Part shown: positions 777-50,488 of the stretch, piece by piece
Layout: every line of letters begins with the position of its first letter
Position numbering within the stretch: position 1 is the first letter of the stretch
Origin: a virus
Length of the DNA: 64,000 bases
Virus record (IMG/VR): IMGVR_UViG_3300046804_003463
Coordinates: 1-64,000 of that record
Strand: one strand, 5' to 3'
Notes under the pieces: generated by a model
What the model was told of the DNA's origin: nothing
Databases searched by the model: none
The model's input: only the letters and a program-made list of their open reading frames with translations
Program-made: the position numbers and the translations under genes

Positions 777-815
777 AAAACAAAAAACCCCGAAGCCTTT
801 TGGATTTCGGGGTTT
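777..815 (-). terminator. Intrinsic terminator (attenuator) just upstream of tRNA-Pro
   Basis: Stem AAACCCCGAA/UUCGGGGUUU followed by UUUGUUUU. Confidence 0.8.
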
Positions 816-937: not shown

Positions 938-941
938 AACT

Positions 942-1355: not shown

Positions 1356-1525
1356 CCTTCATCAATCAAGGCACGTGCGGCACGACCATACGAACCTTGC
1401 AAGTGCCACACCAGACCTGAATCAATCAACTCTTGAAAAAATTCAATTGTTTCATCAAAGTGCAACTCACCTGCTTCATAAGCAATCATTTTATCAATCT
1501 GATCCATATTACGCCTCCAAAGCAT
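1340..1525 (-). CDS. Hypothetical protein (likely start 1507)
   Basis: FQELIDSG..LQGSYGR phage motif; in operon. Confidence 0.7.
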   Translation of the reverse strand: MLWRRNMDQIDKMIAYEAGELHFDETIEFFQELIDSGLVWHLQGSYGRAARALIDEGWCIQ

Positions 1526-1919: not shown

Positions 1920-1931
1920 TCAACATGTATA

Positions 1932-1960
1932 ATTATAGCGGTGGTACGGTACTTTGTCAA
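1932..1960 (-). promoter_or_regulatory. sigma70 early promoter
   Basis: TTGACA-17-TATAAT. Confidence 0.85.
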
Positions 1961-2196
1961 CCATTTCTTTTTAGCAACTTTTCTATCTCAGTGTTGTCAA
2001 GTTGAAAATGTTGCACAATGTCGTCCCAAAAGTCTATTGCCAAATAATCTTCTGGTGTATTCTCACCCGTTTGATAGATTTGATATATTTCTGACAACAA
2101 TTGGAGTGCGTATCTTTCCTGGTGTGATTTGAAAACATCCACAAAAAATGAACCACCCGTTTGTTTAGCAATTTCAGTCAGCAGTTCTTGATTCAT
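1957..2196 (-). CDS. Hypothetical protein
   Basis: Co-oriented ORF in operon. Confidence 0.6.
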   Translation of the reverse strand: MNQELLTEIAKQTGGSFFVDVFKSHQERYALQLLSEIYQIYQTGENTPEDYLAIDFWDDIVQHFQLDNTEIEKLLKRNG

Positions 2197-2545
2197 AACG
2201 CTCCTTGATTAACTCAATCAATTCTGGATTACGATACTCATAATTATCTGGAATCTGCAAATCAATGATAGGCTTGTCAAGCATCCACTCCATCATCTTG
2301 TTGCGAACCCATAATGCATGTTCAGTGTCAGCACATACGACCTCATCACACCACATCAGCAAATCTTCAGTAACAGGAATCAATGCGTAGCCCGCCGTGC
2401 CTGCCGACCGTGTATTGAAGTTATATGGTTCAGCCGATAACACATGCGCCATTGTAGGCGAACGGAGCATATTGGCAGAACAGACCGTCAATACTTTTTT
2501 ATAGTCGCCTTGAAATCTATTTGAATGTACACCATAACGTACCAT
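2174..2545 (-). CDS. Low-molecular-weight protein tyrosine phosphatase-like protein
   Basis: VCSANMLRSPT (CX5RS) P-loop, SAGT, IPD motif. Confidence 0.85.
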   Translation of the reverse strand: MVRYGVHSNRFQGDYKKVLTVCSANMLRSPTMAHVLSAEPYNFNTRSAGTAGYALIPVTEDLLMWCDEVVCADTEHALWVRNKMMEWMLDKPIIDLQIPDNYEYRNPELIELIKERYESRTAD

Positions 2546-2555
2546 TACTCTTCCT

Positions 2556-2738
2556 TCAAAAAATAGATGACAGTGCAGCAGCACCGTTCATTGCTGAAAT
2601 AATCAGATAGACAAATGCCCAACCAGGTCGCCCTTCATCAGCGGCGACCGTAGACATATTCCAAAAAAGAAATACAAACAAAAATTGTAAAGCAAAAATA
2701 ATGATGCCCATGTCATTCCAATAATGTACGACTTTCAC
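2556..2738 (-). CDS. Small membrane protein
   Basis: Two hydrophobic segments. Confidence 0.55.
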   Translation of the reverse strand: MKVVHYWNDMGIIIFALQFLFVFLFWNMSTVAADEGRPGWAFVYLIISAMNGAAALSSIF

Positions 2739-2958
2739 GATCCCAAAAAAACTGCACTGCCCGTTTAGCGGATTCTAAATTGATATACTGGCCAAGATGC
2801 TTTTCATCCTGAACCGTGAAAGTGTACTCACCTGTATACACCAGACCAATCCAAACTTCCTGGAGTGCAATCTTGCTTACTGTACCGACAATCTTACCAG
2901 TCAAGGTGTCATAATAATAGTATTTCTCAGAATACCGTTCCCAATCATATTCTTTCAT
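2713..2958 (-). CDS. Hypothetical protein
   Basis: Overlapping ORF in operon. Confidence 0.6.
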   Translation of the reverse strand: MKEYDWERYSEKYYYYDTLTGKIVGTVSKIALQEVWIGLVYTGEYTFTVQDEKHLGQYINLESAKRAVQFFWDRESRTLLE

Positions 2959-3137
2959 TGGCGAAACACCAGACTTTGCGTGATGGTATCAGTCACATTA
3001 CAAATGAAATAGGCCACATCTTCTCCATAGAGATTTTCCTCTATATTAACAAACTTCACTTCACTTGTCAAGTGTTCATTCCCACACTCACGACATTTCA
3101 CCACAAACGATTCATTCATTAAGCAATACCTGTCCAT
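2955..3137 (-). CDS. Small Cys-containing protein
   Basis: CxxC motif; ATGA overlap with the next gene. Confidence 0.55.
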   Translation of the reverse strand: MDRYCLMNESFVVKCRECGNEHLTSEVKFVNIEENLYGEDVAYFICNVTDTITQSLVFRQ

Positions 3138-3448
3138 TGTAGGCGATTCAGATAAGTGCCGGCATCATACACATTACCACGCACAAAGTTTTTCGCTGGT
3201 GCTTTCCATGAAGCCGCTTTCCAGATGTTACCCGTTTCTTTCTCTACGAACGAGTGTACCGAGCGGGAGCCACCAGCCGAGATTTTCACGACCTTTACGT
3301 ACTTAGACCCCGGCTCAAACTCAACACCGAACTGTCCGATGTCCGAGATACCGGCATCACCACACCATTTCACATAGTTCGCCACGATATTATCTTTGTA
3401 ACCAATCAGCGCAACAGCCAGATCATCTTTCACCATGTTCTTCTCCAT
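3119..3448 (-). CDS. Conserved phage hypothetical protein
   Basis: KYVKV..SVHSFV..GNIWKAASWKAPAK motif. Confidence 0.75.
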   Translation of the reverse strand: MEKNMVKDDLAVALIGYKDNIVANYVKWCGDAGISDIGQFGVEFEPGSKYVKVVKISAGGSRSVHSFVEKETGNIWKAASWKAPAKNFVRGNVYDAGTYLNRLQWTGIA

Positions 3449-3648
3449 TACAAAACAGTTTCACAGTATTTGTATTTCAACAACTTAGCCGTATCTTTAT
3501 CATACAACCAAGTCAGCGCACACCATACAGAATCCGAAACACTATAATACTCACGATACCGAGTATAAACTTCGGCAAACCAATTTTCATCATTCCGTGC
3601 GGCACAATAGTCTTGTGCCCGTTTCAAATACTCCATTTTGTTCATCAC
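3448..3648 (-). CDS. Hypothetical protein
   Basis: Coupled ORF. Confidence 0.6.
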   Translation of the reverse strand: MMNKMEYLKRAQDYCAARNDENWFAEVYTRYREYYSVSDSVWCALTWLYDKDTAKLLKYKYCETVL

Positions 3649-3965
3649 GCAAACTCCATTTCAAGTTCTTTCGGTGAATAAACAATGCAGCCATCCCACT
3701 CCAGCTGGCTACGCTCATACTCTGTCAGATAGTCATCCTCAACCAACTGTAGATCAACCACAGTCTCACGGAAGTAATCATTTGATACCTCAACTTGAGC
3801 CTTCACCTCTGCCAGAATCCGAGACATTTGCGATTTATCAACATTTCGCACCACGTACTCATCACCACCTTTAGGTTTGAAATATGCATCCTCACCGGTA
3901 CCAATCGTACCGTCCTCACGCCATGCATAATTCTCATAGACCTGTGTAGTAAATATTGCTTTCAT
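3645..3965 (-). CDS. Conserved phage hypothetical protein
   Basis: TQVYENYA..YFKPKGG..TEYERSQLEWDG; first gene after promoter. Confidence 0.75.
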   Translation of the reverse strand: MKAIFTTQVYENYAWREDGTIGTGEDAYFKPKGGDEYVVRNVDKSQMSRILAEVKAQVEVSNDYFRETVVDLQLVEDDYLTEYERSQLEWDGCIVYSPKELEMEFA

Positions 3966-3995
3966 GACAACCTCATCTCAATCTCAACAGAGTCC

Positions 3996-4024
3996 ATTAT
4001 AGCCGAGGCACCCCACTTTGTCAA
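3996..4024 (-). promoter_or_regulatory. sigma70 early promoter
   Basis: TTGACA-17-TATAAT. Confidence 0.85.
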
Positions 4025-4139
4025 CCATTCCTGCGATAATATTCCAGCCATCCATCGTTAGCAGAAAGATAACGGAGTAGCACAGTAATTGCTAGATTGA
4101 CAACCACAAAGATTAACAATATTGTAAGAATAGTGAATG

Positions 4140-4319
4140 TCATTCTTCCTCATCATCATAGTCTTCGCCATCATAAAAGAATTCATTCAACCGTGCCATA
4201 TCCGCTACATCATCTTCGGACATATACTTCAGACAAGCCATGATCACGGTGTCACGATCCAGCAGTCCATCTTCAACCAACTCCAGGACACGATTCGTTG
4301 CTTGACGGGTTTGATACAT
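4140..4319 (-). CDS. Small acidic hypothetical protein (MYQTRQATNRVLELVEDG..)
   Basis: Own translation, 59 aa; GGAGG RBS. Confidence 0.65.
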   Translation of the reverse strand: MYQTRQATNRVLELVEDGLLDRDTVIMACLKYMSEDDVADMARLNEFFYDGEDYDDEEE

Positions 4320-4490
4320 CCTATACCTCCAAAAAAAATTTTTGTGCGATTCAGTGGCGGATTTGCGATTTCACTGGAGTTCGGCGTCAATAAGGTTTGC
4401 TTTGAAATAGCATGTTCCTTTGAGGAGGCTCATTGTCTAGACCGCTTATCGTTTTCACCATACACCACACCACACACTGCCCCCACTGCC

Positions 4491-4637
4491 CTATGCACCC
4501 TCAGGGCGCCCGTACATCTCCAGTATATTGTTCACTGTTAGCACTGCCACGCCCAAGTAATTAGCAATGAAGGGCACACTGCACCCAGCATCACTCATCT
4601 CCAGGATTTCAATTACCAAGTTCTTGTAATAGCCCAT
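4491..4637 (-). CDS. Small HTH-like protein (MGYYKNLVIEILEMSDAGCSVPFIANYLGV..)
   Basis: Own translation, 48 aa; G-x-S-x-x-x-IA-x-x-LGV HTH pattern. Confidence 0.55.
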   Translation of the reverse strand: MGYYKNLVIEILEMSDAGCSVPFIANYLGVAVLTVNNILEMYGRPEGA

Positions 4638-4818
4638 TTATTTCCTCATCCTCATCATAGGGATTAATCTTCGGCGGCTTACGGGTGTTAGGATTTTCTC
4701 CGTACACCTTTACATCACCGTTACGCCCACCTGCCACCACAGTACGGGGTGCCATGTAGACTTCAAACTCCTGCACGGCCTCTGCTACTTCAGCCTCACT
4801 AAACAATGCTTTTTTCAT
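4609..4818 (-). CDS. Hypothetical protein
   Basis: TAATG-coupled; N-terminus paralogous to 4818-4994. Confidence 0.6.
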   Translation of the reverse strand: MKKALFSEAEVAEAVQEFEVYMAPRTVVAGGRNGDVKVYGENPNTRKPPKINPYDEDEEINGLLQELGN

Positions 4819-4994
4819 TATGCAAAGGCCTTCGTTGGGTAGCCAGCAGCAATACCACCAGAGCCCTTCACAAAGCCCTTAGAGGCCTTAGCACGGCATA
4901 CTGGCTTTTTGGCCTTACGGGGCTTACACACAGTGGCACCCATACCCTTGGTGGCCTCTGCTACATCAGCATCAGTGAATAGTGCTTTGATCAT
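4818..4994 (-). CDS. Small basic hypothetical protein (MIKALFTDADVAEATKG..)
   Basis: Own translation, 58 aa; GGAG RBS. Confidence 0.6.
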   Translation of the reverse strand: MIKALFTDADVAEATKGMGATVCKPRKAKKPVCRAKASKGFVKGSGGIAAGYPTKAFA

Positions 4995-5004
4995 ATCATA
5001 CTCC

Positions 5005-5139
5005 TTACAGTTTCCAGGTTTTGATGGCCTCTGCTACATCACCCACGGCAATGTTCAGCAGAGCAGCAATACGCCACACAGGATAGCCAAGGTACTTCAA
5101 GGTGGCTATCTCATTAATCGTTTCACGGCGGATAATCAT
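5005..5139 (-). CDS. Small HTH-like protein (MIIRRETINEIATLKYLGYPVWRIAALLNI..)
   Basis: Own translation, 44 aa; HTH-like pattern. Confidence 0.55.
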   Translation of the reverse strand: MIIRRETINEIATLKYLGYPVWRIAALLNIAVGDVAEAIKTWKL

Positions 5140-5324
5140 AATGTCATTCCCTTTGCAAGATAAGCAATATAACCAGGGTTCTTGTTCAACATCACCACAG
5201 GCTCAATACCCAACACCACACCGGTCTTCACAAAGGCCTTTTCAGCATAGGCCACAGCGGCTCTCAAGGTCTTGAATTTTCTGCCATCACAGGTATACAT
5301 CACAATCTCCTTTTCAATCACCAC
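5136..5324 (-). CDS. Hypothetical early protein (likely start MYTCDG)
   Basis: AAGGAG RBS after promoter. Confidence 0.6.
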   Translation of the reverse strand: MVIEKEIVMYTCDGRKFKTLRAAVAYAEKAFVKTGVVLGIEPVVMLNKNPGYIAYLAKGMTL

Positions 5325-5330
5325 ACAGGC

Positions 5331-5359
5331 ATTATAGCAAGGTGCTGGGATTCTGTCAA
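5331..5359 (-). promoter_or_regulatory. sigma70 early promoter
   Basis: TTGACA-17-TATAAT. Confidence 0.85.
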
Positions 5360-5493
5360 CCAGTTATTCGGCAATTATGCTTTTCTATCCCTCAGTGCAT
5401 CATACAGAATATAGGCCATTGCAAAAGGTGTAATTGTCAGAAAAACAACCACCGCACCATCGGCCACGTACAAAAGCCAGTTCAGAAAATCCA

Positions 5494-5697
5494 TCATGCC
5501 GCATCCTTCATTAGTCGGTAACCTTCGGCCACATTGAACAAATTAGCCCGCTGCCAGTCCCACAAATCAGTTACTTTATTGAAAACTGGACCGAACGGAT
5601 ACGCTTTCTTATCATTAATCAAATAGACCATCGTTTGCCAGCCACCAGGTACGCTTATACAAGTAATTTCCATTTTACTCTCCAAACACCGCACCAA
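5494..5697 (-). CDS. Hypothetical protein
   Basis: Co-oriented ORF with GGAG RBS. Confidence 0.55.
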   Translation of the reverse strand: MVRCLESKMEITCISVPGGWQTMVYLINDKKAYPFGPVFNKVTDLWDWQRANLFNVAEGYRLMKDAA

Positions 5698-5893
5698 TGG
5701 GACGGCTAGTAATTGCTAATTGATAAACACCAGGATTTGCTTTGATTATTCGGAGCATTGCTTTTTTGCTACCCTTTGCAGTTATCAAACCCGTTGCTTT
5801 ACAGTAAACAGAGTAGTAGGTATAGGCCGTTATCATTTTATCAACCCAGAGTAGTAACAGCACCAGGTGCAGCAGCCAGAACACCCCACACAC
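5675..5893 (-). CDS. Hypothetical protein (likely start MITAY)
   Basis: Co-oriented ORF. Confidence 0.5.
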   Translation of the reverse strand: MCGVFWLLHLVLLLLWVDKMITAYTYYSVYCKATGLITAKGSKKAMLRIIKANPGVYQLAITSRPIGAVFGE

Positions 5894-5959
5894 CCACCAG
5901 ACCCGCTATTATCAGAATCGCAATCATCTCAATCTCCACAATCATCTCATCACGGTTAG

Positions 5960-5988
5960 ATTATGGCGGAAGTGCGGTAGATTGTCAA
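5960..5988 (-). promoter_or_regulatory. sigma70 early promoter
   Basis: TTGACA-17-CATAAT. Confidence 0.75.
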
Positions 5989-6012
5989 CCATTTTGTGGT
6001 TTTTTGTGGCTA

Positions 6013-6039
6013 GGGCGGGCGCCAGGGTGGGTGCCAGGG
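6013..6039 (+). repeat. G-tract repeat (GGGYGGGYGCCA)x2 + GGG; G-quadruplex motif
   Basis: Five GGG runs with loops of 1, 5, 1 and 5 nt. Confidence 0.6.
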
Positions 6040-6186
6040 TACGGTGCGGTGTTGTCATTGTGCTACTAGGTGTAGTGTCGTGCAGTGCGAATATCGCAAC
6101 ATTTAGTATGCCGCTGCCGCACACGATTCCAGCACGCCATAAATAGTGCGTTTGCATCCCACTATTCTACACTTTTTCACACCTTT

Positions 6187-6441
6187 TCACACCAACATAT
6201 ACCGTTCCTGCTCTGGTAATGTCAATTGAGTTTGATTATACAATTCTATTTGCTTTTCTCTCAGCCAGTCATCATATACACCATCGTCAAATTCTTCTGG
6301 TGTCATACAATTATCAATTTCCAAATAGTAGATAAAACGGGTAAATGAGCCGGTCATTCCTGTGGGAATATCGTTCGGCTTGGCTACTTTTCGCAGGTCT
6401 TCAATTCTCTTCTCCAACTCAATTATAACTTCCGGTCTCAT
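6187..6441 (-). CDS. Hypothetical protein
   Basis: Coupled ORF. Confidence 0.6.
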   Translation of the reverse strand: MRPEVIIELEKRIEDLRKVAKPNDIPTGMTGSFTRFIYYLEIDNCMTPEEFDDGVYDDWLREKQIELYNQTQLTLPEQERYMLV

Positions 6442-6644
6442 ATAGTCTCCGTTATATCTTTATTCAGCAACTTAGCCCATCGCTTATGGAATTGTGCTAT
6501 ATCCGTCATCACCTTATGGGGGTGCTGTCCGTATATAAACGCTATCATGGCTAGTTCAGCGGCACCGTCACCATCTACTGTTATCATTTTAGCAGCCATC
6601 TCTATGGCGTCCTGATAGGTTTTGGTGCGGAATTTAGGCATCAA
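6438..6644 (-). CDS. Hypothetical protein
   Basis: Coupled ORF. Confidence 0.55.
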   Translation of the reverse strand: MMPKFRTKTYQDAIEMAAKMITVDGDGAAELAMIAFIYGQHPHKVMTDIAQFHKRWAKLLNKDITETI

Positions 6645-13283: not shown

Positions 13284-13508
13284 TTATTTGTATTTGCTTT
13301 CAAAGTATTCATTTACTTTATATTTTGCTTCTTCCATTGATTCTGCTATAACTTTTACCCATGCTATACCACCGGCAATTTCCATGTCAAATGGCACAGG
13401 ACCATTAAACTCAAACTCTTCGGGTATATTGATTTGTACTTCATATTCTTCAAGATTGCGTATGCGATTCATCACCGCATCAAACTCGGCTCGTCGTGTC
13501 ATAGTCAT
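13284..13508 (-). CDS. Hypothetical protein
   Basis: GGAG RBS. Confidence 0.65.
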   Translation of the reverse strand: MTMTRRAEFDAVMNRIRNLEEYEVQINIPEEFEFNGPVPFDMEIAGGIAWVKVIAESMEEAKYKVNEYFESKYK

Positions 13509-14370
13509 CTCCTATCACTCCATTGTACACGACTCGTTTCACAGTGTCAACTCTGTGAGCAGAATTTCGTGCGCCCATCACAACAATTACCTCATGATAA
13601 TCTTTTTCACCATTAACTTTGTGTACTAATATTGCCACGCAAAAGCCGGCAGGATTTGTGAAGCCTGTTTTACTTATTTGAACACCCTCTACTTGTGACA
13701 ATATAGCGTTGTTTGTATTATGTAGAACTAAAACTCTATTCTTTCTTTTACCTGGCGTTTCAATCGTCGTAATCTTTTTGGTAGAAATGTTTCGTATTTC
13801 TGGATAATTTGCCGCTTCAACAACCATCTGTGTTACATCACTGGCTGTGCTTACATTATATTTACTCAAGCCGGAAGGATCATCAAAACTTGTGTTGTAC
13901 ATGTCTAGCATCAATGCTTTTGAATTCATGTGATCCATAAAACGTCTACGACCACCGGGATAATCTGCCGCTAATGTTTCTGCTGCTGCATTGTCACTCT
14001 TGATTAGTAGCATATGAAACAATTCACCACGGGTATACTCAAGGCGTGGCATTTTACTGCCTGCATTTTTACTGAGTACAAGTTTACGATTCATATCACG
14101 ATCATAGTCTAATGCAACCATAGCAGTCATGAGTTTGGTCATACTTGCCAATGCACGGACTTCATCAATGTTTTGTGCCCTTGTAATTGTGCCCTCAGTA
14201 ATATTTGTGACCATTACCGATACAGTGCTATAAGTTTGCACTGTCTGCTGCTTTGCTTTCTTTTTCTTTTTAACTTTGTGTTTAGACTTGGCATCTGCGG
14301 TTGTTATCGTCAGAAAAAATAAAACAAAAAATGTTACAAGCCACTGTGTGAGTGTAAGTTTCTTATTCAT
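13480..14370 (-). CDS. D-alanyl-D-alanine carboxy/endopeptidase (peptidase S11, PBP7-like)
   Basis: Signal peptide, SMTK (SxxK), SDN (SxN), KTG triad. Confidence 0.9.
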   Translation of the reverse strand: MNKKLTLTQWLVTFFVLFFLTITTADAKSKHKVKKKKKAKQQTVQTYSTVSVMVTNITEGTITRAQNIDEVRALASMTKLMTAMVALDYDRDMNRKLVLSKNAGSKMPRLEYTRGELFHMLLIKSDNAAAETLAADYPGGRRRFMDHMNSKALMLDMYNTSFDDPSGLSKYNVSTASDVTQMVVEAANYPEIRNISTKKITTIETPGKRKNRVLVLHNTNNAILSQVEGVQISKTGFTNPAGFCVAILVHKVNGEKDYHEVIVVMGARNSAHRVDTVKRVVYNGVIGDDYDTTSRV

Positions 14371-15064: not shown

Positions 15065-15379
15065 TTACCACCTCTCTGCACGTTGCCATGTGTCATCGTA
15101 ATCAGCGGCGTAATCGGTGACATCTGGAATGTTGACTGCAAAATCCTCTATGTCAGGCATGTGTATCTCTTCACCTTTTCTGTGTGCCGAAAGATATTTG
15201 CCTGCTTTTGCACGTGTTGCTGCACCTTCAGGTGTTTGATGATACTCTAATAGTTTTTTTGACCGTATCGCCTTGTCTTCTTCAGAATGTACACGAACAT
15301 TACCACAAGACATGGAACAATATGGTCCACGTTTCTTGTGTGTTACTCCACATCTAGGACAGGTTTTTTCGGCGGGCAT
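15065..15379 (-). CDS. Zn-finger hypothetical protein
   Basis: CPRC..KRGPYCSMSC. Confidence 0.7.
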   Translation of the reverse strand: MPAEKTCPRCGVTHKKRGPYCSMSCGNVRVHSEEDKAIRSKKLLEYHQTPEGAATRAKAGKYLSAHRKGEEIHMPDIEDFAVNIPDVTDYAADYDDTWQRAERW

Positions 15380-15977
15380 TTTCTTCTAGTGTTTTCTCTA
15401 TGTATTCACATAGCCAATGACCTAAAATCAAATGACCTTCTTGTATGCGTGGTGTTGACGTTGATGGTATGGCAATGTAATAATCTGAGTAGTCATGCAT
15501 CCATCTTGTTTTCATACCAGTAAATGCAACATTGACTAGACCATTCATGTGGCCAAATTTCATTGCTTCAAGAATGTTTTCTGATAAACCTGAGGTTGAA
15601 AGATAGATTGCTACATCACCAGGATTTGAAAGTGCTTGTAGTTGTCTTGAAAAGATATGCTTGAAACCCAAATCATTACCAATTGCAGTGAGAATTGAGG
15701 TGTCAGTGTTCAAAGCAATAGCGGCATATGCATCACTCTGTAAATTGAAATAAGAAACTAATTCACCAGCAAGATGTTGTGCTTCTGCTGCTGAACCACC
15801 ATTGCCCATGAAAAATATTTTTTTATTGTTCAACAAGGCACTCACACATGCCTGTGCAGCAATTTTAGTTTCTTCTAATGGATTTGGTATTGGATGTGAA
15901 GCAAACTCTAATGGTGCATCCGCCAACAAAGAATCAATCACCGCTCTGGTGTCTTTCAAAGACTCATATATGTTCAT
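15354..15977 (-). CDS. gmhA: Phosphoheptose (sedoheptulose-7-P) isomerase
   Basis: GNGGSAAEAQH, TAIGND, STSG.S.N, RIQEGH. Confidence 0.9.
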   Translation of the reverse strand: MNIYESLKDTRAVIDSLLADAPLEFASHPIPNPLEETKIAAQACVSALLNNKKIFFMGNGGSAAEAQHLAGELVSYFNLQSDAYAAIALNTDTSILTAIGNDLGFKHIFSRQLQALSNPGDVAIYLSTSGLSENILEAMKFGHMNGLVNVAFTGMKTRWMHDYSDYYIAIPSTSTPRIQEGHLILGHWLCEYIEKTLEENARRKNLS

Positions 15978-41178: not shown

Positions 41179-41192
41179 TATTTAGTATTTAG
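41179..41192 (-). promoter_or_regulatory. Tandem late-type promoter motifs
   Basis: CTAAATA twice upstream of the head-cargo operon. Confidence 0.6.
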
Positions 41193-41896
41193 TAGATTTC
41201 CGTTGCTCCTGTGCTGGCCATGACACCTTGACAGTGTATTTTATCTAGTTCCACAAGACGGTCAGGTTCAATGTTGAAGAAATGTGCATGTTCTGTGTCA
41301 ACACCGGCATCTTGAACTACACCAATGTTTCTTCTACAGACGATAGAGTAATCATCAATAAGACTTGGGCAAAATGAGAATAAACGAGTAATCAACAAAT
41401 CAGTAAATGTTTCTGCAACTTCACCTCTCATCCAAGTTGGCATTCTTTTCTTAAACACATACCTACCAAAGTGGTCATGCTCTGCTATGTCAAATTCATC
41501 ATGAAGTATGGTTCTTGCAGAAAACTTGTACACTCTACGAACAGAATGCATCAGACGTTTCATCTCAGGTGCTTGTTTCAGAAGCATCATCATTTTTAGC
41601 ATCAACACATTTTCTGCTTCACTTTTGCGGGCAACAGCAGCAAACTGTGCTATGTCTTTATCACCAGAAAAGTCAGCAATCAAATCAACAAGACCACTCA
41701 TGCTGTCATACTTTTCTTTTTCTACTGCCTCTGGTGAACCATCTGCTAAAATAACAATCGCATCAGGACATTTCTTTCTGAGTGATACAAGACCTTCAAT
41801 CGTTTGTTGTAATCTATCTTCACGACTGAGTACACCCATGTTTGGATTAAGAGCAGATGTTACAATGAATAGCTGAAGTGAAGGAATCAATGACAT
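41189..41896 (-). CDS. Hypothetical glycosyltransferase-like protein
   Basis: FIVTSA..R..QT..S..ADGS..KFSAR. Confidence 0.6.
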   Translation of the reverse strand: MSLIPSLQLFIVTSALNPNMGVLSREDRLQQTIEGLVSLRKKCPDAIVILADGSPEAVEKEKYDSMSGLVDLIADFSGDKDIAQFAAVARKSEAENVLMLKMMMLLKQAPEMKRLMHSVRRVYKFSARTILHDEFDIAEHDHFGRYVFKKRMPTWMRGEVAETFTDLLITRLFSFCPSLIDDYSIVCRRNIGVVQDAGVDTEHAHFFNIEPDRLVELDKIHCQGVMASTGATEIY

Positions 41897-42561
41897 TCGT
41901 ACTCCGAAAATAATTTAATTGTTTTATATGTCGCTTTTGATTTCAATACATGAAGAATCGTGTCAGTAATTTCTTTTGTATCTAACAACTTGTCTTTATT
42001 CGGATGACCATCTTGCATCGGTGTATTAATGCCACCAGGATGAATACTTGTCACACGAATTTCATCCATTTGTGTATAAATCTCTTTACCAAGAACATCA
42101 GCAAAAGCAGTAATAGCGTGTTTAGACGCTGAATAAACTGCTTCCCATTCCAGTGGCATAAGACCTGATACAGAATTGATGAAGAAAATATCACTATGTT
42201 TATTCATCCACTTGTATGCTTCTTTTGTTACATACATCGTGCCTTTGACATTCAAATCAATGATTCTGTCTATTGACTCAAATGAAAAATCATCTCTGAA
42301 TAAACCCCATTGATATACGCCAGCATTGTTTACAAGAACATCAATGTGTGTACCAATTCTTTTGAATGCTTCTTCAACTTGTTTTGATTTCGTGATGTCA
42401 CATTCTATCCATTGAAATGTGTCGGGAAAGGCAAAAAGGTTGATAGATGGCTTTGTGCGTGAAAGACCATATACAAAGTAACCTTCATCAATCAGTCTGT
42501 CTGCTATATCATAACCAAGACCATAACTACAACCTGTCACCACAGCCACTTTACGCATCAT
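41887..42561 (-). CDS. Short-chain dehydrogenase/reductase
   Basis: TGCSYGLG, NNAG, YSASK, HPG. Confidence 0.92.
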   Translation of the reverse strand: MMRKVAVVTGCSYGLGYDIADRLIDEGYFVYGLSRTKPSINLFAFPDTFQWIECDITKSKQVEEAFKRIGTHIDVLVNNAGVYQWGLFRDDFSFESIDRIIDLNVKGTMYVTKEAYKWMNKHSDIFFINSVSGLMPLEWEAVYSASKHAITAFADVLGKEIYTQMDEIRVTSIHPGGINTPMQDGHPNKDKLLDTKEITDTILHVLKSKATYKTIKLFSEYECH

Positions 42562-43694
42562 ATCTCCTCAAAAACATCAATCGCTAATTTCATTTCATCT
42601 TCTGTAATGTCATTTACAATCTTATAGTTGCCAATAGCAATAGGTAATGGCGCATACTGATTACCATTACGATGCTTTGTTGCATCACGTAGGCTCTCTA
42701 ACAATAACTTCATGTTGGTAAAGTCTTTGTGAAATGTTTTGAGTTTTAGTCTCTTTGCGACACCAAATATTCGTTTGAGTTGAACAGTATCAATGTAGCC
42801 ACGAATGAATGAAATACATGAACTGTATAAACAATCCAATGCTACTGCTTCACCATGTAGCAATTCAGGTATATTAGTCATTTCAATGACAGGACTGAAT
42901 GTGTGTCCAAAATCTACACACCGATCTAATCGTTTTTCCCACAGATTAGGTCCAAGTTCTGCAATCATGTCTGTGATAGCAAGATTGATGACACGAACTG
43001 GTACGGCACCATACTGAAACTTTTCATCAATCAGTATTTCTGCATTCTCTTCTAGTAGATGAAAGAGTTCTGGTGATTTGATGACAGCAAGTTTGAATAT
43101 CTCTGCAATGCCATTGATGATTTCTCGTTCACTCTGTGTACGAATAAATTTCTTGTCAATGTATGTCGCAAGTGGTGGGTAGTACGCACCAATACGATTG
43201 CGTCTGCCTAGATGATTGACACCAACTTTAGAACCTACAGAAGCGTCAACGATGGCAAGAAGTGTTGTGGGAATTTTAACGTATGGAATTCCACGGCGGT
43301 ATATGCTACAAGCAAAGCCAACAATATCCAGCAGAACACCTCCGCCAATAGCGATAATCGGTTCACGGCGTAACACTCCATTCTGTTCAAAAAAGTCTAA
43401 GATACGATCTACATTCTTCCAGTTTTTATTTTCTTCTTTGCAGTCTACACAAAGTATTTTGCAACTCAACTTGACCGCACCAAAGTATGTTGCAATGTTA
43501 TCTTTGTACAAATCATGTACTTCAGAATCAATAACAATGATTCTGCGATCACTATTCGTAATGTTTACAATGTCTTGATTACTTGGGCTGAAGATGTCAG
43601 CAGAGTATGTAAGTTTGAATTCTACTGGTAGTTCTGTTTTGACTGACCAAGTTCGTTTGAACTTGTCATAATCCATCATAAAGTCTAAACTCAT
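42558..43694 (-). CDS. Sedoheptulose-7-phosphate cyclase (2-epi-5-epi-valiolone synthase-like)
   Basis: GGGVLLD, YRRG, PTTL, MIAELGPNLWE..R.VDFGHTFSP, HGEAV. Confidence 0.85.
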   Translation of the reverse strand: MSLDFMMDYDKFKRTWSVKTELPVEFKLTYSADIFSPSNQDIVNITNSDRRIIVIDSEVHDLYKDNIATYFGAVKLSCKILCVDCKEENKNWKNVDRILDFFEQNGVLRREPIIAIGGGVLLDIVGFACSIYRRGIPYVKIPTTLLAIVDASVGSKVGVNHLGRRNRIGAYYPPLATYIDKKFIRTQSEREIINGIAEIFKLAVIKSPELFHLLEENAEILIDEKFQYGAVPVRVINLAITDMIAELGPNLWEKRLDRCVDFGHTFSPVIEMTNIPELLHGEAVALDCLYSSCISFIRGYIDTVQLKRIFGVAKRLKLKTFHKDFTNMKLLLESLRDATKHRNGNQYAPLPIAIGNYKIVNDITEDEMKLAIDVFEEI

Positions 43695-44644
43695 TTCATC
43701 GCCTTACTAAACAATTTACATGCATGAACATAAAAATATTTTGCTTTGTCAATATCACCTGCCAGCAATTTGAAGGGCAGCATACGAATGAACTGTGATG
43801 CTTCAAGTATATCTATGAGTTTCATTTTATCTTCTGGTAACTCAGAGATGAAGTGTTTGTTGAATGTATCAAAGTTATTCGTGTCATCGTTTGGATTAGA
43901 TAAATTAATTCCTTTCACATGAACATTGTGGTCATTGATAAGACCATAATAACTGCGTGAACACTGAAGCACTTGTGCGTAGTCAAGGTATTTGGTATTC
44001 CACATACTCTCTTCATACACATCAATGAAAACTACACGGTCTTCTTCAAATGAGTACATGATATTCTCAAGTGTTGGATTACCATGTATATTACACTCAT
44101 CATCGTTCTTTAATTCGGAAAAGTATTCTTTCAGAACATGAAGATAACCACCCACACCTGTAACAACTTCACCATTGAAATGATATGTGCCATAATAAAA
44201 GAAATCTTCAAACTCTTTTATCTTGATAGCATCTTCAATTTTCTGTTGTATTTCTTCAATAAAATAAAGTTTTGGTGCGCCAGCAATAGGTTCTTTTCTG
44301 ATTGAGTGAAGTGTATTCAGTCCTTTCCAGACTGCTTGACTTATTTTGAAGATTTGTTCTTCACTTAGTATGTCTTTGCTAAGAATGCTTTTGATGTCAT
44401 GAAAGCCCTCTAGATATTCTAAATCAAACCATGCTTCAACGCTAGTAGAATCAACATTTACAACTTTGGGAAATAGATTAGGATATAGTGTATTGTATTG
44501 CTGTAGTTTCATTAACTGAGAATACCAACGCATGAAACCATATTCACGATTTCCTACACGTGAAATTTCCTTGCGTACAATTTTCTCATCTGGTAACCAA
44601 TAAGTTCTACTTAATGAGCCACCCTTCAATGATATAGTTTTCAT
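43691..44644 (-). CDS. APH/choline-kinase-fold phosphotransferase-like protein
   Basis: GGS loop, HGNPTLENI (catalytic Asp replaced by Asn), FID. Confidence 0.65.
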   Translation of the reverse strand: MKTISLKGGSLSRTYWLPDEKIVRKEISRVGNREYGFMRWYSQLMKLQQYNTLYPNLFPKVVNVDSTSVEAWFDLEYLEGFHDIKSILSKDILSEEQIFKISQAVWKGLNTLHSIRKEPIAGAPKLYFIEEIQQKIEDAIKIKEFEDFFYYGTYHFNGEVVTGVGGYLHVLKEYFSELKNDDECNIHGNPTLENIMYSFEEDRVVFIDVYEESMWNTKYLDYAQVLQCSRSYYGLINDHNVHVKGINLSNPNDDTNNFDTFNKHFISELPEDKMKLIDILEASQFIRMLPFKLLAGDIDKAKYFYVHACKLFSKAMK

Positions 44645-45372
44645 TTTGCACCTAGTGTTTGCCTTGCTATCTCAATGCCGTATTCTTGTGGACTACCTAG
44701 CACAATTGTCTCTTGACTACCACCAAGAGGATTCATGAATACTTGTTTATTGGATTGTATCATACTTTGTATCACATCTGCAATATACAATTCACCATCT
44801 TTTTCGGCTAACTTGTTGTAATATTCTAAGTAAAGGTGTCCAGTTAGAAAACCATAGAAGCCTGATGACGCATACGGTGAGATTTGTTTCTTTTCTACGA
44901 TTTCAATTACCGTGTTTTCATATGCACGAACATAAGAATACTTTGGTGAATTACCCACGAACACATCAATGTACGCATCATGCTTTGCGGTCAAGTCATC
45001 AGCAATAAAATCTATACGACGACCTTTGATGATCGTATCTGCGTTATGTACAAATGTTGGTAAATGTTTGTTGTTTAGTTGTTCAATACCAATTGCCGCT
45101 GTGTGTGCTTGACCTTTTGTATCACCAATATACAAAATATTGCTGTCGTTCCAACCTAGTGGCTTGATTGCTTCAACAAGTTGTTCTTTGAAATAGATGT
45201 CTCTTTTGTTGGCGACAAGAATAAGTTGATTGACCCAACCAATGTTTTTCAAAATGTCATATATGATTGTCTTATCATTCCAAGGCAAAAGATATTTTGG
45301 TATGTCAAAGCCGACATCATGAAAACGGGTGTTATAACCCGCCATACAGATTATCAGATTCATTTCAGCCAT
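44641..45372 (-). CDS. Sugar-phosphate nucleotidyltransferase
   Basis: MAG..TRF..PKYL, TKGQAHT, NAD, EKKQIS, GELYI. Confidence 0.8.
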   Translation of the reverse strand: MAEMNLIICMAGYNTRFHDVGFDIPKYLLPWNDKTIIYDILKNIGWVNQLILVANKRDIYFKEQLVEAIKPLGWNDSNILYIGDTKGQAHTAAIGIEQLNNKHLPTFVHNADTIIKGRRIDFIADDLTAKHDAYIDVFVGNSPKYSYVRAYENTVIEIVEKKQISPYASSGFYGFLTGHLYLEYYNKLAEKDGELYIADVIQSMIQSNKQVFMNPLGGSQETIVLGSPQEYGIEIARQTLGAK

Positions 45373-46073
45373 TCTTCCATATCATTTCGTAGCAGTGAAT
45401 GCCATGTGCTGTTGTACTCACCTGGTGAAAACGGATGATTGACATCACAATACACAAGATTCTCACCAACAAGATTGTTTCTCTTCCAGTTGGCACTCAT
45501 AAAATCTTCCATCATGTATTGTACACCAGAATTGTAGAACTCATCAATGTGATTGTAAGCATCAGCATACTTGTCCATGTTTTCGGATGATGAGAACGCA
45601 AACTGATCGTTGCCAAAGTCACGTTCTGGTGTCATGCGACAGTTTGGTATATACAACTTACTGTTGTCTAGTTCTTCAAATGGTATGCGAACATTAATAG
45701 CAAAGTCAAATCGTGAACGAATGACCCAATCAAACTTTGTTTCAAAGTATTTTTCATACTCATACTTTGTTTTCATACACTCTCTGATTGCATACAACTG
45801 AGCATATGTTGACATGCGACCATCTTTAACTTTCCAGTTTGGTGATGGTGGTGGAGTATTCGTGTACTTTGACAAATCAACTGTGGGATTTGGTGATGTC
45901 TTAAAGCTGTATGCATTGTATGTTGAAGAAATCTTTTGCATTTGTTCAGCAGGCATTTCCCAAGAATGCAGAAATACAGTAACATCATTACCTTTGATGA
46001 TGTTCTCGTAATGATATGCATAGCCTTTTTCCCACATTCTTGGTTGGCCAGAAATACATAGTGCTATTCTCAT
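45360..46073 (-). CDS. Putative glycosyltransferase-like protein
   Basis: IALCISGQPR, FLHSW, DWVIRSRFD, NDQFA. Confidence 0.65.
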   Translation of the reverse strand: MRIALCISGQPRMWEKGYAYHYENIIKGNDVTVFLHSWEMPAEQMQKISSTYNAYSFKTSPNPTVDLSKYTNTPPPSPNWKVKDGRMSTYAQLYAIRECMKTKYEYEKYFETKFDWVIRSRFDFAINVRIPFEELDNSKLYIPNCRMTPERDFGNDQFAFSSSENMDKYADAYNHIDEFYNSGVQYMMEDFMSANWKRNNLVGENLVYCDVNHPFSPGEYNSTWHSLLRNDMEEWLK

Positions 46074-46750
46074 AGTTCTCTTCCTACATTTGCTTTGTTG
46101 TCTGTGATGCCAAATGGCTTTAGTTGTTCCTTTTCCATCACAACCATACTATTGTAAAATGAAACAGAATACAGATTGTGATATACATCTAATGCTTCTT
46201 GTGAAATTGGTGAACCTTGAAAGTGTTGCTGATTGACAATATCAGTTGCTCGTTTACAATGTTCTGTGAATGTACCAGCACCACGAAACACACCACCCCA
46301 TGGCTGTGGCCAATAACTTGTGTGAGTGTCTTCACAAATGTAAACACCACCTTCTTTGATATGTGGAAAAACTTTATTGAGTGTGGTGATTTGATGATTC
46401 ATTACATGTGAACCATCGTCAATTACAATGTCAAACTTGTCTTGTGTTTTGAGAAATTCATCCCAAAACTCTGGATCACTTTGGTCACCCATCACAATAT
46501 TGACATCACCATCATACTCATACTTCAAACATTCTTCATTGATGTCAATAGCAACAACTGATGTATCAGAACCAAAGTATTTCAACCACATCTCAATTGA
46601 GCCACCACCCAACACACCAATTTCAAGTATGCGTGGTGCTTTGTGAGTAAATTTACTCAGATGTCTTTCATATACATCAAAATAACCTGACCATTTGGTA
46701 GAACCTTTTTCAAGTTCCCAAAATAATTCTTTGATTCTATTTGTCGTCAT
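46070..46750 (-). CDS. Class I SAM-dependent methyltransferase
   Basis: LEIGVLGGGS, GDQS, DIVIDDGSH, GGVYICED. Confidence 0.88.
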   Translation of the reverse strand: MTTNRIKELFWELEKGSTKWSGYFDVYERHLSKFTHKAPRILEIGVLGGGSIEMWLKYFGSDTSVVAIDINEECLKYEYDGDVNIVMGDQSDPEFWDEFLKTQDKFDIVIDDGSHVMNHQITTLNKVFPHIKEGGVYICEDTHTSYWPQPWGGVFRGAGTFTEHCKRATDIVNQQHFQGSPISQEALDVYHNLYSVSFYNSMVVMEKEQLKPFGITDNKANVGREL

Positions 46751-47579
46751 ATTTCGCCTCAATCACTTTACGCCATTCTGGCACACGATCATACTGATGT
46801 ACAATAGTATACTCTATTCCTGTTGAAGTTACAACCTTGTCACCTTCTAGTTTCGGTGATGGTTCTAATAGATGTGGTCTAAACTGTTCAATCTTACTTG
46901 GATCAGCAGTTGTACCTAATTGACATGCCCAACCTTCTTCTGATTTCATGTACATTGATGTTTTCACATATGGATGTCTAGAAACCATCACATTGAATAC
47001 CGCTTGATCAACAATTGGTATTGGGCGATTGATACAGTTCAAAAATAATTGCAATGTTAAATCTCTCATTGCATGTCCACGGCCGGCAAGAACACCTACA
47101 TTGAAAATTGTATTGTTCTTGAAATCATCATAGATGCCTTGACCATAACATTGTGTAATATTTTCACGACCCCATGGCTCATCTTTATATTTCATACTTT
47201 CAGAAGAAAACACTAAGTCTTCTTGTGCAGAAAGATTCTCTTCTAACCATGTAACAGGATTTTTTTGAAAGATAACATCTCGTACATCAGTGGTAATCAC
47301 ATAACGATAGTCGTTGCTTTTGAGCAGTTTGTAAATATGAACAAATCGTTCAACATGCACCATCAGTTGTGATTGATAAGTTAGATTACCTTCACCGTCT
47401 TGATTGAATGCAATGATTGAGAAACCTGCTTCAGTTACCTTTTTTACGGTATCTTTGTCGCAGTTCATGAGAATCAGAACTTTGTCACCCTCAAAGCCTG
47501 ATTGATTGATTGAATTAATCCAATACTTTAGTTTTGCCCAATCATAATTTGTTGAGCAACCCACGATCAAATCCTTCAT
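46737..47579 (-). CDS. GT-A fold glycosyltransferase-like protein
   Basis: TDVRDV (DxD), NVG, DQAVFN, HQYDR. Confidence 0.75.
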   Translation of the reverse strand: MKDLIVGCSTNYDWAKLKYWINSINQSGFEGDKVLILMNCDKDTVKKVTEAGFSIIAFNQDGEGNLTYQSQLMVHVERFVHIYKLLKSNDYRYVITTDVRDVIFQKNPVTWLEENLSAQEDLVFSSESMKYKDEPWGRENITQCYGQGIYDDFKNNTIFNVGVLAGRGHAMRDLTLQLFLNCINRPIPIVDQAVFNVMVSRHPYVKTSMYMKSEEGWACQLGTTADPSKIEQFRPHLLEPSPKLEGDKVVTSTGIEYTIVHQYDRVPEWRKVIEAKYDDK

Positions 47580-47594
47580 AATATCTCCAATAAT

Positions 47595-47780
47595 TTATTT
47601 TATGTCTGTTGTTGCCCAGTTCGTTGTGTATTTTTTGTATTGTTGTTGACTCTGACCAGGCGTGTCATCAAGATATTTAGCAGTGAGTTCTGGTCTGCCC
47701 CACTCACCACCACCTGCTTTAGACACAAACTCTTGTCTGCTATCTTTATTTGCCTTGAGATAATCTTTGAATGTTTTCAT
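47595..47780 (-). CDS. Small CTS-like protein
   Basis: MKTFKDYLK; GEWG..Y..DTPGQ. Confidence 0.65.
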
Positions 47781-48100
47781 ATCGTGAATGAAGAACCGCA
47801 ACCACAAGTAGCAGTTACGTTTGGATTTTTGATTGTAAATGAAGCGCCCATCAAATCTTCTTTATAATCAATCTCGGCTTCATTCATATATTGTAAACTT
47901 ATAGTATCTATGACAACGCCAACACCATCTCTTTCGAATGTCATATCATCTTCATTTGGTGGGTATTCTTCTAACGTAAACCCATATTGAAAACCCGAAC
48001 ACCCACCACCTTGTACAAACACACGAAGTTTCAATGAAGGATCTTCTTCAGCAATAATTGTCTTGATTTTTCTCACAGCAGAATCAGATATAGTTATCAT
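47777..48100 (-). CDS. erpA: Fe-S cluster insertion protein (ErpA/IscA family)
   Basis: [16 protein letters not shown]. Confidence 0.9.
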
Positions 48101-48232: not shown

Positions 48233-48517
48233 TTATCCTCTTGTGAGTGTCAGTATTTTTTGCATTTGTTTCTCAATGATAGGACCACGATTAGGCCAAT
48301 GAATGTATGGCTGACTTGCGGTCTTGTATAGATTCGTCAGAAATGGCATGATAATCTTTTCCACTTGTTGAAGTCTTGCTTTATACTCTTCAACGGTTTC
48401 ATCTTTCTCAGCAATGACTGCTTGGTACTCAACTTCATCTACTGTGCTGAAGCCAAAATCATCATCTGCATACTCTGCTAAAATTTTATTGATATCGTAT
48501 TCCATTACTTGTCCCAT
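48233..48517 (-). CDS. Conserved hypothetical protein
   Basis: DDFGFS..I.P.L.NL..YI.WPNR. Confidence 0.75.
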   Translation of the reverse strand: MGQVMEYDINKILAEYADDDFGFSTVDEVEYQAVIAEKDETVEEYKARLQQVEKIIMPFLTNLYKTASQPYIHWPNRGPIIEKQMQKILTLTRG

Positions 48518-49728
48518 GCTTTCTGTGCGTTAAAGTTTTGTCTGCTGAACTCTAGTCTGTCTACTAGTTTCAATGCTTTACCAACATGATCTACAGCAAC
48601 AAAACCCTCTGGTGCTGTGATACGAAAACCATCATCAGTGCGAACAAATGTACCAATGCTCTTGATAGTTTCCAACTTACGAATAATCATCAACTTGGCA
48701 TCAACAATCAAATTCATCAAGTCAAATATTGATTTTAGTTGAATGGCATTTGAACGATAGAAACGCATCACTTCATTCTTTTCTTTGATACGTTTTTGTT
48801 TTGTATCTTCTTTCTTTGCTGCAAGAATTTCTTTGTTCAATTTTGCTTCAACATAATTCATCAATTCTTGTGTATGAATTCTTGTGTCTGCAATCTTTTT
48901 ACCTTCACGAACTTTTGTATTGTTGAATGTTTTGATTTGTGTAAGAAAAACATCCGATGCAGCAATACGATTCAATGTCAATGCGGGTATTGAATTGAAA
49001 ACTCTGCCTGCATTTGAAAGAATAGATGTAATTGCTGCCGTTTCTTCTTCAGTAAATGTAACTGAACCTGACGCATCAGTAAACGAAGCATCACGAAACC
49101 AAACATCTTTTGTTGGCTTCAAATGTCCAATGTCAATGTTGTATGATGCTTTCATTGTCTCTAATGTTTTACCAGAGTATGATGTATGAAACACAACACC
49201 AATCTGTGCAGCCATCATTGTCTGTGCTAACTTTGATTTTGTTGGCACAGCATATACGATTGTGTTTGGTTGAAATATAATGTATTCTTCACCATCAATA
49301 GTTTCTTTTTTGATGTCGCCCTTACTGAACATCATATCACCTTGCAGTACACCTTTGATACCCAATTTAGGTAAGAATGCAAGTGCAAGTTTTAGTTTCT
49401 GATTCAGTCCACCACCAGGATGATTTGCATCAATATCTTCATCAGTATAATTCAATTTTGCATTTTTTGCAAACACTGATTTAGTGCCAACGAAAAAATT
49501 ACCGTTCTCTGGATTTGTACCAGCAAAGATAGCAGGTGCGCCATCCCATTTTGTGGTTACATTTATTTTTGAACCTGTATGACCGGCAAGCATATTACGC
49601 AATGAACGAAGAAAATCTATTGCTTCACGTGCGCCTGATACACCACCGTTTAGTACGTTGTCTTCAAGATGCTCAAGATGAACATTCTTGCCTTCTTTAC
49701 TTTCTTTGAGATATTCCATGAATTTCAT
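48505..49728 (-). CDS. Conserved T4-like CTS-bearing protein (ligase/NTase-like KWDG motif)
   Basis: MKFMEYLKE; HLEHLED, KWDGAP, QGD, EGFV, KLVDR. Confidence 0.75.
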   Translation of the reverse strand: MKFMEYLKESKEGKNVHLEHLEDNVLNGGVSGAREAIDFLRSLRNMLAGHTGSKINVTTKWDGAPAIFAGTNPENGNFFVGTKSVFAKNAKLNYTDEDIDANHPGGGLNQKLKLALAFLPKLGIKGVLQGDMMFSKGDIKKETIDGEEYIIFQPNTIVYAVPTKSKLAQTMMAAQIGVVFHTSYSGKTLETMKASYNIDIGHLKPTKDVWFRDASFTDASGSVTFTEEETAAITSILSNAGRVFNSIPALTLNRIAASDVFLTQIKTFNNTKVREGKKIADTRIHTQELMNYVEAKLNKEILAAKKEDTKQKRIKEKNEVMRFYRSNAIQLKSIFDLMNLIVDAKLMIIRKLETIKSIGTFVRTDDGFRITAPEGFVAVDHVGKALKLVDRLEFSRQNFNAQKAWDK

Positions 49729-50480: not shown

Positions 50481-50488
50481 TATTTATA
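50481..50488 (-). promoter_or_regulatory. T4 late promoter
   Basis: Exact TATAAATA. Confidence 0.75.

Follow-up and report, generated by a model that had tools for sequence, protein, structure and literature searches.

What would a T4-like phage make with an apparent sedoheptulose 7-phosphate cyclase? The question is raised by an island of eight genes in the IMG/VR record IMGVR_UViG_3300046804_003463, a 77-kb fragment from an uncultured T4-like lake phage, of which positions 1 to 64,000 were analyzed (64,000 nucleotides, referred to here as the window). The eight open reading frames (ORFs) are located on the minus strand at positions 41189-47579, are transcribed in the order A-B-C-D-E-F-G-H, and overlap at each junction by 4 to 26 bases. 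An earlier reading of the bases, called the original prediction below, had seen here a C7-cyclitol pathway built around a cyclase resembling EEVS, the synthase that forms 2-epi-5-epi-valiolone. From comparisons of the encoded proteins and their gene neighborhoods, we lean towards the view that the core genes D-E-F-G serve to convert sedoheptulose 7-phosphate to a C7 cyclitol activated with a nucleoside diphosphate (NDP), most likely for a glycoconjugate formed during infection.

The cyclase and the four-gene core

Protein F (42558-43694, minus strand; 378 amino acids, aa) is well supported by its sequence relationships as an EEVS-type sedoheptulose 7-phosphate cyclase. When compared with PDB sequences, it matched ValA (4P53) with an E value of 2.8e-83 and 283 bits, followed by desmethyl-4-deoxygadusol synthase (DDGS; 5TPR; 1e-64, 222 bits), 3-dehydroquinate synthases (DHQS; 1e-40 or weaker, at most 142 bits), and 2-deoxy-scyllo-inosose synthase (DOIS; 6e-26, 94 bits). 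Both DHQ-synthase Pfam domains were present, and with the aroB equivalog TIGR01357 F scored 216 bits, far below the cut-off (305). The DHQS motif LNxGHTxGHAxE was not found in F, whose own motif is VDFGHTFSPVIE, with VDFGHTFSP instead of LNxGHTxGH. Two active-site positions distinguish bacterial EEVS from DDGS (PMC4426668). Together with the three metal ligands, these positions are D, H, E, H, H in every one of the 13 phage copies and 4 cellular cassette copies; of 84 cellular EEVS-like proteins, 83 share this set, and a Nostoc DDGS encoded in a mycosporine cluster has A, T, E, H, H. We take the two residues to be Asp281 and His360 of ValA, replaced by Ala and Thr in DDGS, a numbering with which the alignments of F agree. 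In maximum-likelihood trees, which held neither a biochemically characterized EEVS sequence nor any 2-epi-valiolone synthase (EVS), the phage cyclases were nested among actinobacterial EEVS-like proteins, with DDGS as the outgroup. Some metagenomic cyclases of the F family already carry the label EEVS from the Joint Genome Institute (JGI).

Other cyclase identities were considered and set aside. DHQS was ruled out by the aroB score below the cut-off, the missing motif, and the weaker PDB matches, and DDGS by the Asp and His at the discriminating sites, the greater closeness to ValA, and the position in the trees. EVS was placed near DHQS and apart from EEVS in a published tree (PMC5133447); this identity is not supported for F, which lies far from DHQS in a comparison that used no EVS sequence.

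The original prediction had described the eight genes as an overlapping operon, and all ORFs were indeed present at its coordinates, on the minus strand and overlapping throughout. Its labels of methyltransferase, nucleotidyltransferase, kinase-fold protein, cyclase, and short-chain dehydrogenase/reductase (SDR) held; the label "glycosyltransferase-like" suits H by its fold, may well be right for A, for which the hits are weak, and is unproven for C. The cyclase motif that it quoted is present in F. It had also placed the cyclase nearer to EEVS than to DHQS or DDGS and looked to phylogeny for a decision; the PDB ranking, the active-site residues, and the trees agree with this placement, F falling within the EEVS-like group and not among the DHQ synthases.

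The core opens with D (44641-45372, minus strand; 243 aa), which is predicted to be a small sugar-1-phosphate nucleotidyltransferase. It matched PF00483 with an E value of 1.7e-11 and 44.6 bits, the gathering cut-off being 21.2, and contained both the G-x-x-T-R loop (MAGYNTRF) and the PK motif. Matches to RmlA- and GlmU-type NCBIfam models were obtained as well, all of these equivalogs far below their cut-offs, and the best and only relative among PDB sequences was 4EVW, a nucleoside-diphosphate-sugar pyrophosphorylase from Vibrio (6e-18). G (41887-42561, minus strand; 224 aa), which closes the core, is a classical SDR oxidoreductase by its adh_short match (1.5e-40) and its intact TGxxxGxG, NNAG, and YxxxK motifs, and its PDB neighbors are generic keto-reductases.

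In the case of E (43691-44644, minus strand; 317 aa), no Pfam match was obtained, and the assignment as a kinase-like protein comes from its predicted fold, that of the aminoglycoside phosphotransferase (APH) and choline kinase family. An AlphaFold2 model with a predicted local distance difference test (pLDDT) value of 88.3 gave APH(2'') enzymes and methylthioribose (MTR) kinase as top Foldseek matches. The VIA Z scores were 18.8 for APH(4)-Ia, with a root mean square deviation of 3.1 over 261 residues, 17.9 for MTR kinase, 16.1 for LicA, and 14.8 for NahK. K25 of the ATP site, the Mg-binding N194, and D208 of the FID motif are invariant, as is N189. Homology of E to AcbU gained no support from 151 Micromonosporaceae genomes, none of which gave an E-like protein, the presence of the acb cluster among them not being established.

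The same four genes occur in the same order outside phages: in a Candidatus Actinomarina single-cell genome (54, 47, 62, and 45% identity for D-E-F-G), on a 262-kb contig of a gammaproteobacterial metagenome-assembled genome (MAG), and on a contig of a Lake Mendota MAG which, being just 4 kb long, is of uncertain cellular origin. A scan of genomes with the single F sequence had given nothing, and the cellular cassette came to light only with an alignment-based search. The surroundings in Actinomarina comprise three GT2 glycosyltransferase (GT) genes, one GT4 gene, a methyltransferase gene, and an HhH-GPD repair gene, and no T4 capsid gene was found in this single-cell genome. The gammaproteobacterial cassette adjoins genes for a GT2 protein, a citrate synthase, and an amino-acid permease, as well as an ORF exceeding 2100 aa. 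The GT2 and GT4 neighbors suggest a role of the cassette in glycan synthesis; the citrate synthase, permease, and HhH-GPD genes are of the housekeeping kind. Ordinary actinomycete EEVS genes are instead paired with ROK kinases. The cassette cyclases formed a single clade (support 100/100) in which the phage copies were monophyletic (86/91) and sister to the Actinomarina copy (99/94), a topology consistent with the phage lineage having captured the cassette once. D-E-F-G is a portable cassette that moves as a block.

The long gammaproteobacterial ORF deserves a separate remark. It occupies positions 1-6591 (plus strand) of its contig (L127), lies two genes upstream of the cassette, and gave no Pfam hit over the 1197 residues that were scanned. 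It could encode a giant surface protein and, as such, be a possible acceptor.

A swappable slot within a conserved frame

The order of the island was constant in 39 IMG/VR contigs, in which protein identities ranged from 54 to 100% and F was the best conserved island protein (72 to 99%). The only gene ever missing was B, which was absent from four of the contigs (L023, L029, L030, and L039). The overlaps from A to H and the order kept across 39 contigs mark these as real genes rather than chance ORFs. In related contigs a major capsid gene of the T4 type was found (E value ~1e-143), and one of these contigs, which has terminal repeats, is a complete genome of 172 kb.

Scanning T4-like contigs that share the phage backbone for relatives of H uncovered further slot types. 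In many of these related contigs A, C, and H were in place, D-E-F-G was absent, and one of two other cassettes was found between the C and H homologues (L140, L147, L150, L165, L167, L169, L171, L191, and L194). One consists of a 248-aa APH-family kinase, a protein of ~340 aa with a D-like N terminus and an HAD-like C terminus, and an NDP-sugar 4,6-dehydratase/epimerase; the other combines an APH/RIO-like kinase with an IspD-like cytidylyltransferase. By their predicted enzymes, both read as recognizable routes to a nucleotide-activated sugar or alcohol, and the cyclitol cassette is thus one of at least three interchangeable modules with a kinase and a nucleotidyltransferase. This exchange of modules is the best indirect support for a nucleotide-activated product of the cassette.

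The frame around the slot is formed by A, C, and H. A (46737-47579, minus strand; 280 aa) is plausible as a GT-A-type glycosyltransferase: it matched the glycosyltransferase family phrog_1579 (4.7e-6), 5 of 13 family members matched GT_PLOD (best E value 4.7e-4), and its TDVKDV stretch is DxD-like by sequence. The A family is large, with 4224 metagenome proteins at an E value of 0.001 or below, a search that returned only close unnamed relatives. C (45360-46073, minus strand; 237 aa), immediately upstream of the slot, is a distant member of PF25072 (DUF7796), which was matched by all 13 family members (best E value 6.8e-9), the window copy scoring below the cut-off; its neighbors in the protein atlas are viral DUF7796 clusters. 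Among PDB sequences, the profiles of A, C, E, and H had no significant match, hhalign comparisons among A, C, and H gave no sign of paralogy, and Pfam and NCBIfam scans found no GT20 or GT-B family match for any of the eight proteins.

H (41189-41896, minus strand; 235 aa), immediately downstream of the slot, is shown by structure modeling to have a glycosyltransferase-like GT-A fold of the nucleotide-diphospho-sugar transferase superfamily. Its AlphaFold2 model (pLDDT 96.6) gave as top Foldseek matches GT6 alpha-1,3-galactosyltransferase (alpha-1,3-GalT) and the GT8 glycogenin, with a probability of 1.00 and template modeling (TM) scores of ~0.5. The VIA Z score to the metal-independent BoGT6a was 13.2. 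A deep alignment of the H family, which comprises 794 clusters at 50% identity, contained no invariant Asp pair and hence no invariant DxD; S14, R28, R128, and E202 are invariant. Metal-independent GT6 enzymes exist. The deep H family matched no family in Pfam or PHROGs.

B (46070-46762, minus strand; 230 aa), an accessory gene, is a class I S-adenosylmethionine-dependent methyltransferase by its matches to Methyltransf_24 (1.9e-6) and phrog_21658 (2e-23). In phages with other slot types it is placed after H.

A proposed route and its rivals

We propose the following route. F would cyclize sedoheptulose 7-phosphate to 2-epi-5-epi-valiolone with loss of the phosphate, the well-supported step. 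G may then reduce the ring ketone or otherwise adjust the oxidation state, E would phosphorylate the ring, probably at the pseudo-anomeric C1 hydroxyl, and D would join the cyclitol phosphate to a nucleotide, giving an NDP-C7-cyclitol. The step assigned to E is weakened by the exchange of its catalytic Asp for Asn, described below. The cassette fills a swappable slot in the conserved frame of A, C, and H plus the methyltransferase B. The activated cyclitol, possibly O-methylated, would most likely be incorporated during infection into a glycoconjugate, which could be one of the host envelope or of the virion. The last two steps of the core have a counterpart in the formation of GDP-valienol (guanosine diphosphate-valienol) by AcbU, a cyclitol 1-kinase, and AcbR/VldB, a cyclitol-1-phosphate nucleotidyltransferase (PMC9200736).

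Several observations weigh against this route, the most direct of which concern E. Its loop G-N-P-T-L-E-N was found in all 13 phage and all 3 cellular copies, so that the catalytic Asp is an Asn, whereas the kinases of the alternative slot cassettes, to which E is homologous (hhalign E value 1.9e-4 over 208 columns), retain the Asp in H-G-D-F-T-L-E-N. Judged by its residues, the HGN of E is a pseudokinase-type loop. On the chemical side, no recognizable epimerase or dehydratase for a C5-C6 double bond is present in the operon. In the known pathways it is this double bond that allows GDP-valienol to work as a donor. The pseudoglycosyl donors described in them are allylic, as GDP-valienol is (PMC9200736). 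An NDP-carbasugar with a saturated ring would serve poorly as a glycosyl donor and be hard to transfer; transfer of the cyclitol phosphate is the chemically easier alternative. The stem of the cassette cyclase clade is long, at 1.16 changes per site, so that the product of F could differ from that of ValA. As for the frame, IspD-type nucleotidyltransferases reached a VIA Z score of 12.5 to H, nearly equal to that of the glycosyltransferases. The divergence of A and H follows the phage backbone and not the slot content; at ~79% backbone identity, H was 57% identical to that of the window whichever cassette filled the slot. No homologues of A, C, or H adjoin the cellular cassettes. The donor of A and H may differ from the slot product, or the two proteins may tolerate different donors.

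With its fold and ligands kept and its catalytic Asp lost, E is here called kinase-like by fold and not filed as a proven kinase. The original prediction had remarked on HGN in place of HGD as a caveat; the exchange is real, the Asn is invariant, and the caveat weighs more than was thought, being specific to the cyclitol cassette. From the copies compared, the Asp-to-Asn change appears to be both specific to this cassette and under selection, and it may mark a slow kinase, a base-independent substrate, or a different reaction.

A separate observation is that residues 186-195 of E, I-H-G-N-P-T-L-E-N-I, resemble the HGN loop found in the JH2 pseudokinase of JAK2, and the profile matches to JH2 entries over this stretch were weak (E value ~0.5).

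Could E be a dead pseudokinase, the cassette never phosphorylating a cyclitol and D activating another sugar phosphate? The Asn in 16 of 16 copies examined would fit, as would the weak hidden Markov model matches to JAK2 JH2 that span the loop. We nevertheless regard this as distinctly improbable, as the Lys of the ATP site, the Mg-binding Asn, and the FID Asp are invariant, E is strongly conserved and always located between D and F, and the cassette holds no other kinase although the EEVS product is unphosphorylated. That EEVS releases an unphosphorylated product is established sugar phosphate cyclase enzymology. A somewhat higher probability, still a low one, is given to a route in which the NDP-cyclitol donates cyclitol phosphate, as cytidine diphosphate (CDP)-ribitol, CDP-glycerol, and CDP-inositol do, and leaves a phosphodiester-linked cyclitol on the glycan. 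It would not require displacement of the NDP from a saturated ring carbon, the slot cassette with a kinase and an IspD-like cytidylyltransferase follows CDP-alcohol logic, and the pairing of a reductase with a nucleotidyltransferase mirrors TarJ/TarI. It is at odds with the finding that Pfam, NCBIfam, and PHROGs scans of the operon detected no LicD, TagF, or CDP-alcohol phosphatidyltransferase family, and with D being nearer to the sugar-1-phosphate nucleotidyltransferases of RmlA/GlmU type, represented by 4EVW, than to IspD/TarI.

Slightly less improbable again, and in our view still unlikely, is a soluble small molecule as end product, for example a gadusol-like absorber of ultraviolet (UV) light, an inhibitor of glycosidases, or a compatible solute. 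The cyclitol would then serve as acceptor, not donor, of ordinary sugars, which E and D would activate. The lack of co-variation of A and H with the slot content is in line with this, and known pathways glucosylate cyclitols by GT-A enzymes (ValG). An EEVS, a methyltransferase, and an SDR are all present in the operon, and in vertebrates EEVS, a methyltransferase, and an oxidoreductase make gadusol (PMC4426668). The fused methyltransferase-oxidoreductase (MT-Ox) of vertebrates is not present in the operon, however, B is absent from 4 of 39 loci, D and E travel with F and G as a block in phages and cells, and no aminotransferase for C-N products of the validamycin or acarbose type was found in Pfam and NCBIfam scans of the operon. 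Very improbable, finally, is a carbasugar on the phage DNA, comparable to glucosyl- or arabinosyl-hydroxymethylcytosine. T4-like phages do glycosylate their DNA, and the island lies near the replication genes for UvsX and a DnaB-like, gp41-type helicase; against this, no gene of the thymidylate synthase/dCMP hydroxymethylase family was found in four relatives, including the complete 172-kb genome, and the cellular homologues of the cassette are located in glycan loci.

Of the products named by the original prediction, the NDP-activated carbasugar thus gains from the activation proteins E and D in the operon and from the exchange of slot modules. DNA decoration has become unlikely with the lack of a thymidylate-synthase/dCMP-hydroxymethylase family gene in the four relatives, and so has a UV protectant, which leaves the conserved D and E unexplained and for which B is dispensable. 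The original prediction had also noted that GmhA, encoded at 15354, uses the substrate of the cyclase; a link between the two is not supported. The GmhA-like gene is real (SIS_2 family, 15354-15977, minus strand), lies 26 kb away and so well apart from the island, and has no SIS_2 counterpart in the complete relative or in the phages with other slot types. A link to transaldolase or other supply genes likewise gained no support, no TAL_FSA gene being found in the four relatives.

Genomic surroundings, known systems, and significance

Upstream of the island, the window contains genes for a UvsX-like recombinase, a DnaB-like helicase, a DUF6267 protein, and an IscA-like protein; the position of the helicase gene next to uvsX suggests that it is gp41-like. 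Directly upstream is the gene for the IscA/HesB-type Fe-S cluster assembly protein (47777-48100, minus strand; PF01521, 2.6e-21), which has a C-terminal CGCGSSF and is possibly an auxiliary metabolic gene. The DUF6267 protein (48505-49728, minus strand; 407 aa; 6e-115; phrog_455) adjoins the island in all relatives. Far from the island are genes for a D-Ala-D-Ala carboxypeptidase (13480-14370, minus strand; Peptidase_S11, 1.2e-35) and, likewise well apart, a 2-oxoglutarate (2OG)-Fe(II) oxygenase (PF13759; 12457-13182, minus strand).

Promoter-like and terminator-like signals gave little indication of when the operon is expressed. The single TATAAATA in the window (50481-50488, minus strand) lies 28 bases before an ORF starting at 50453, far upstream of the operon. 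CTAAATA occurs in six copies in the window, all on the coding strand, with 9.9 expected, so that the count is not above chance. One copy, 95 bases before A, sits within a small ORF and is not kept in divergent loci; a tandem CTAAATA (41179-41192, minus strand) overlaps the stop codon of H, ahead of the next gene. Sigma-70-like and terminator-like sites were no more frequent than at chance level.

C7 cyclitols are known from antibiotics (validamycin and acarbose) and from sunscreens (gadusol and mycosporines). The nearest precedent is the GDP-valienol branch of acarbose and validamycin formation (AcbC/ValA, AcbM/ValC, AcbO, AcbL, AcbN, AcbU, AcbJ, AcbR/VldB, and AcbS/ValL; PMC9200736), in which EEVS likewise acts on sedoheptulose 7-phosphate and a reductase, phosphorylation, and a nucleotidyltransferase lead to an NDP-cyclitol for a transferase. 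That branch needs about eight genes, the phage cassette four, which do not include the ROK 7-kinase, the epimerase, the dehydratase, the HAD phosphatase, or the GT-B pseudoglycosyltransferase resembling trehalose-phosphate synthase. E differs from the kinases of the branch in having an APH fold with an Asn, and D is a small protein of the 4EVW type rather than GlgC-like. The pseudoglycosyltransferases ValL, VldE, and AcbS are of the GT-B type and related to GT20, whereas H has a GT-A fold. The setting differs as well, being phages and glycan loci of planktonic bacteria instead of actinomycete secondary metabolism.

An APH/choline-kinase-fold protein next to an NTP_transferase protein is also known from systems of the AmgK/MurU, LicA/LicC, and NahK type, and the alternative slot cassettes use the same pair. 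The AmgK, LicA, and NahK-type kinases keep the catalytic Asp, which E does not, and the predicted phage substrate is a carbocycle supplied by the cassette's own cyclase and SDR. Common to the phage and the gadusol pathway of vertebrates and algae (PMC4426668) are an EEVS-type cyclase with identical residues at both discriminating sites and nearby genes for a methyltransferase and an oxidoreductase; that pathway has a fused MT-Ox, which the phage does not, and the phage methyltransferase is dispensable. The phage cyclase has fixed partners in E and D, neither of which gadusol synthesis needs. Virus-borne GT-A-type transferases and sugar-nucleotide enzymes are likewise found with the capsid glycosyltransferase A64R of chlorovirus PBCV-1 and in mycobacteriophage virion glycosylation. 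These systems use ordinary sugars, where the phage cassette is predicted to make a carbasugar, and the VIA Z score of H to the PBCV-1 capsid glycosyltransferase 2P6W was 12.0, not above that of many other GT-A proteins.

A nucleotide search with the operon against isolated phages gave no match, and protein searches with F, A, and H in 50,697 phage records returned only contaminating bacterial DHQS or distant matches of 25 to 26% identity (Virus Rctr41k and Synechococcus phage S-SRM01). Our literature search found no paper that ties phages or auxiliary metabolic genes to valiolone or sedoheptulose 7-phosphate cyclases, and viruses go unmentioned in a 2026 review on cyclitols. The chemistry has clear precedent; what is new is the minimal cassette, the Asn-type kinase-like protein, and the occurrence in a virus and in glycan loci of planktonic bacteria.

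More tentatively, a C7 carbasugar may be a building block from which planktonic bacteria and their T4-like phages form ordinary glycoconjugates of the surface or the virion, made by a mobile minimal four-gene cassette that is interchangeable with sugar-nucleotide cassettes. The decoration would then be glycosidase resistant or receptor masking, and E, with Asn for Asp, would represent a new type of cyclitol-phosphorylating enzyme.

If the proposed route is correct, a lineage of T4-like phages that is common in freshwater and marine settings would divert an intermediate of the pentose phosphate pathway into a nucleotide-activated pseudo-sugar, and the same cassette would serve the glycan loci of abundant planktonic bacteria. 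Four enzymes would then offer a compact route to NDP-carbasugars for glycoengineering, and the swappable slot would be a natural experiment on phage glycan variation. Carbasugars would thereby move from secondary metabolism into the biology of cell surfaces and viruses.

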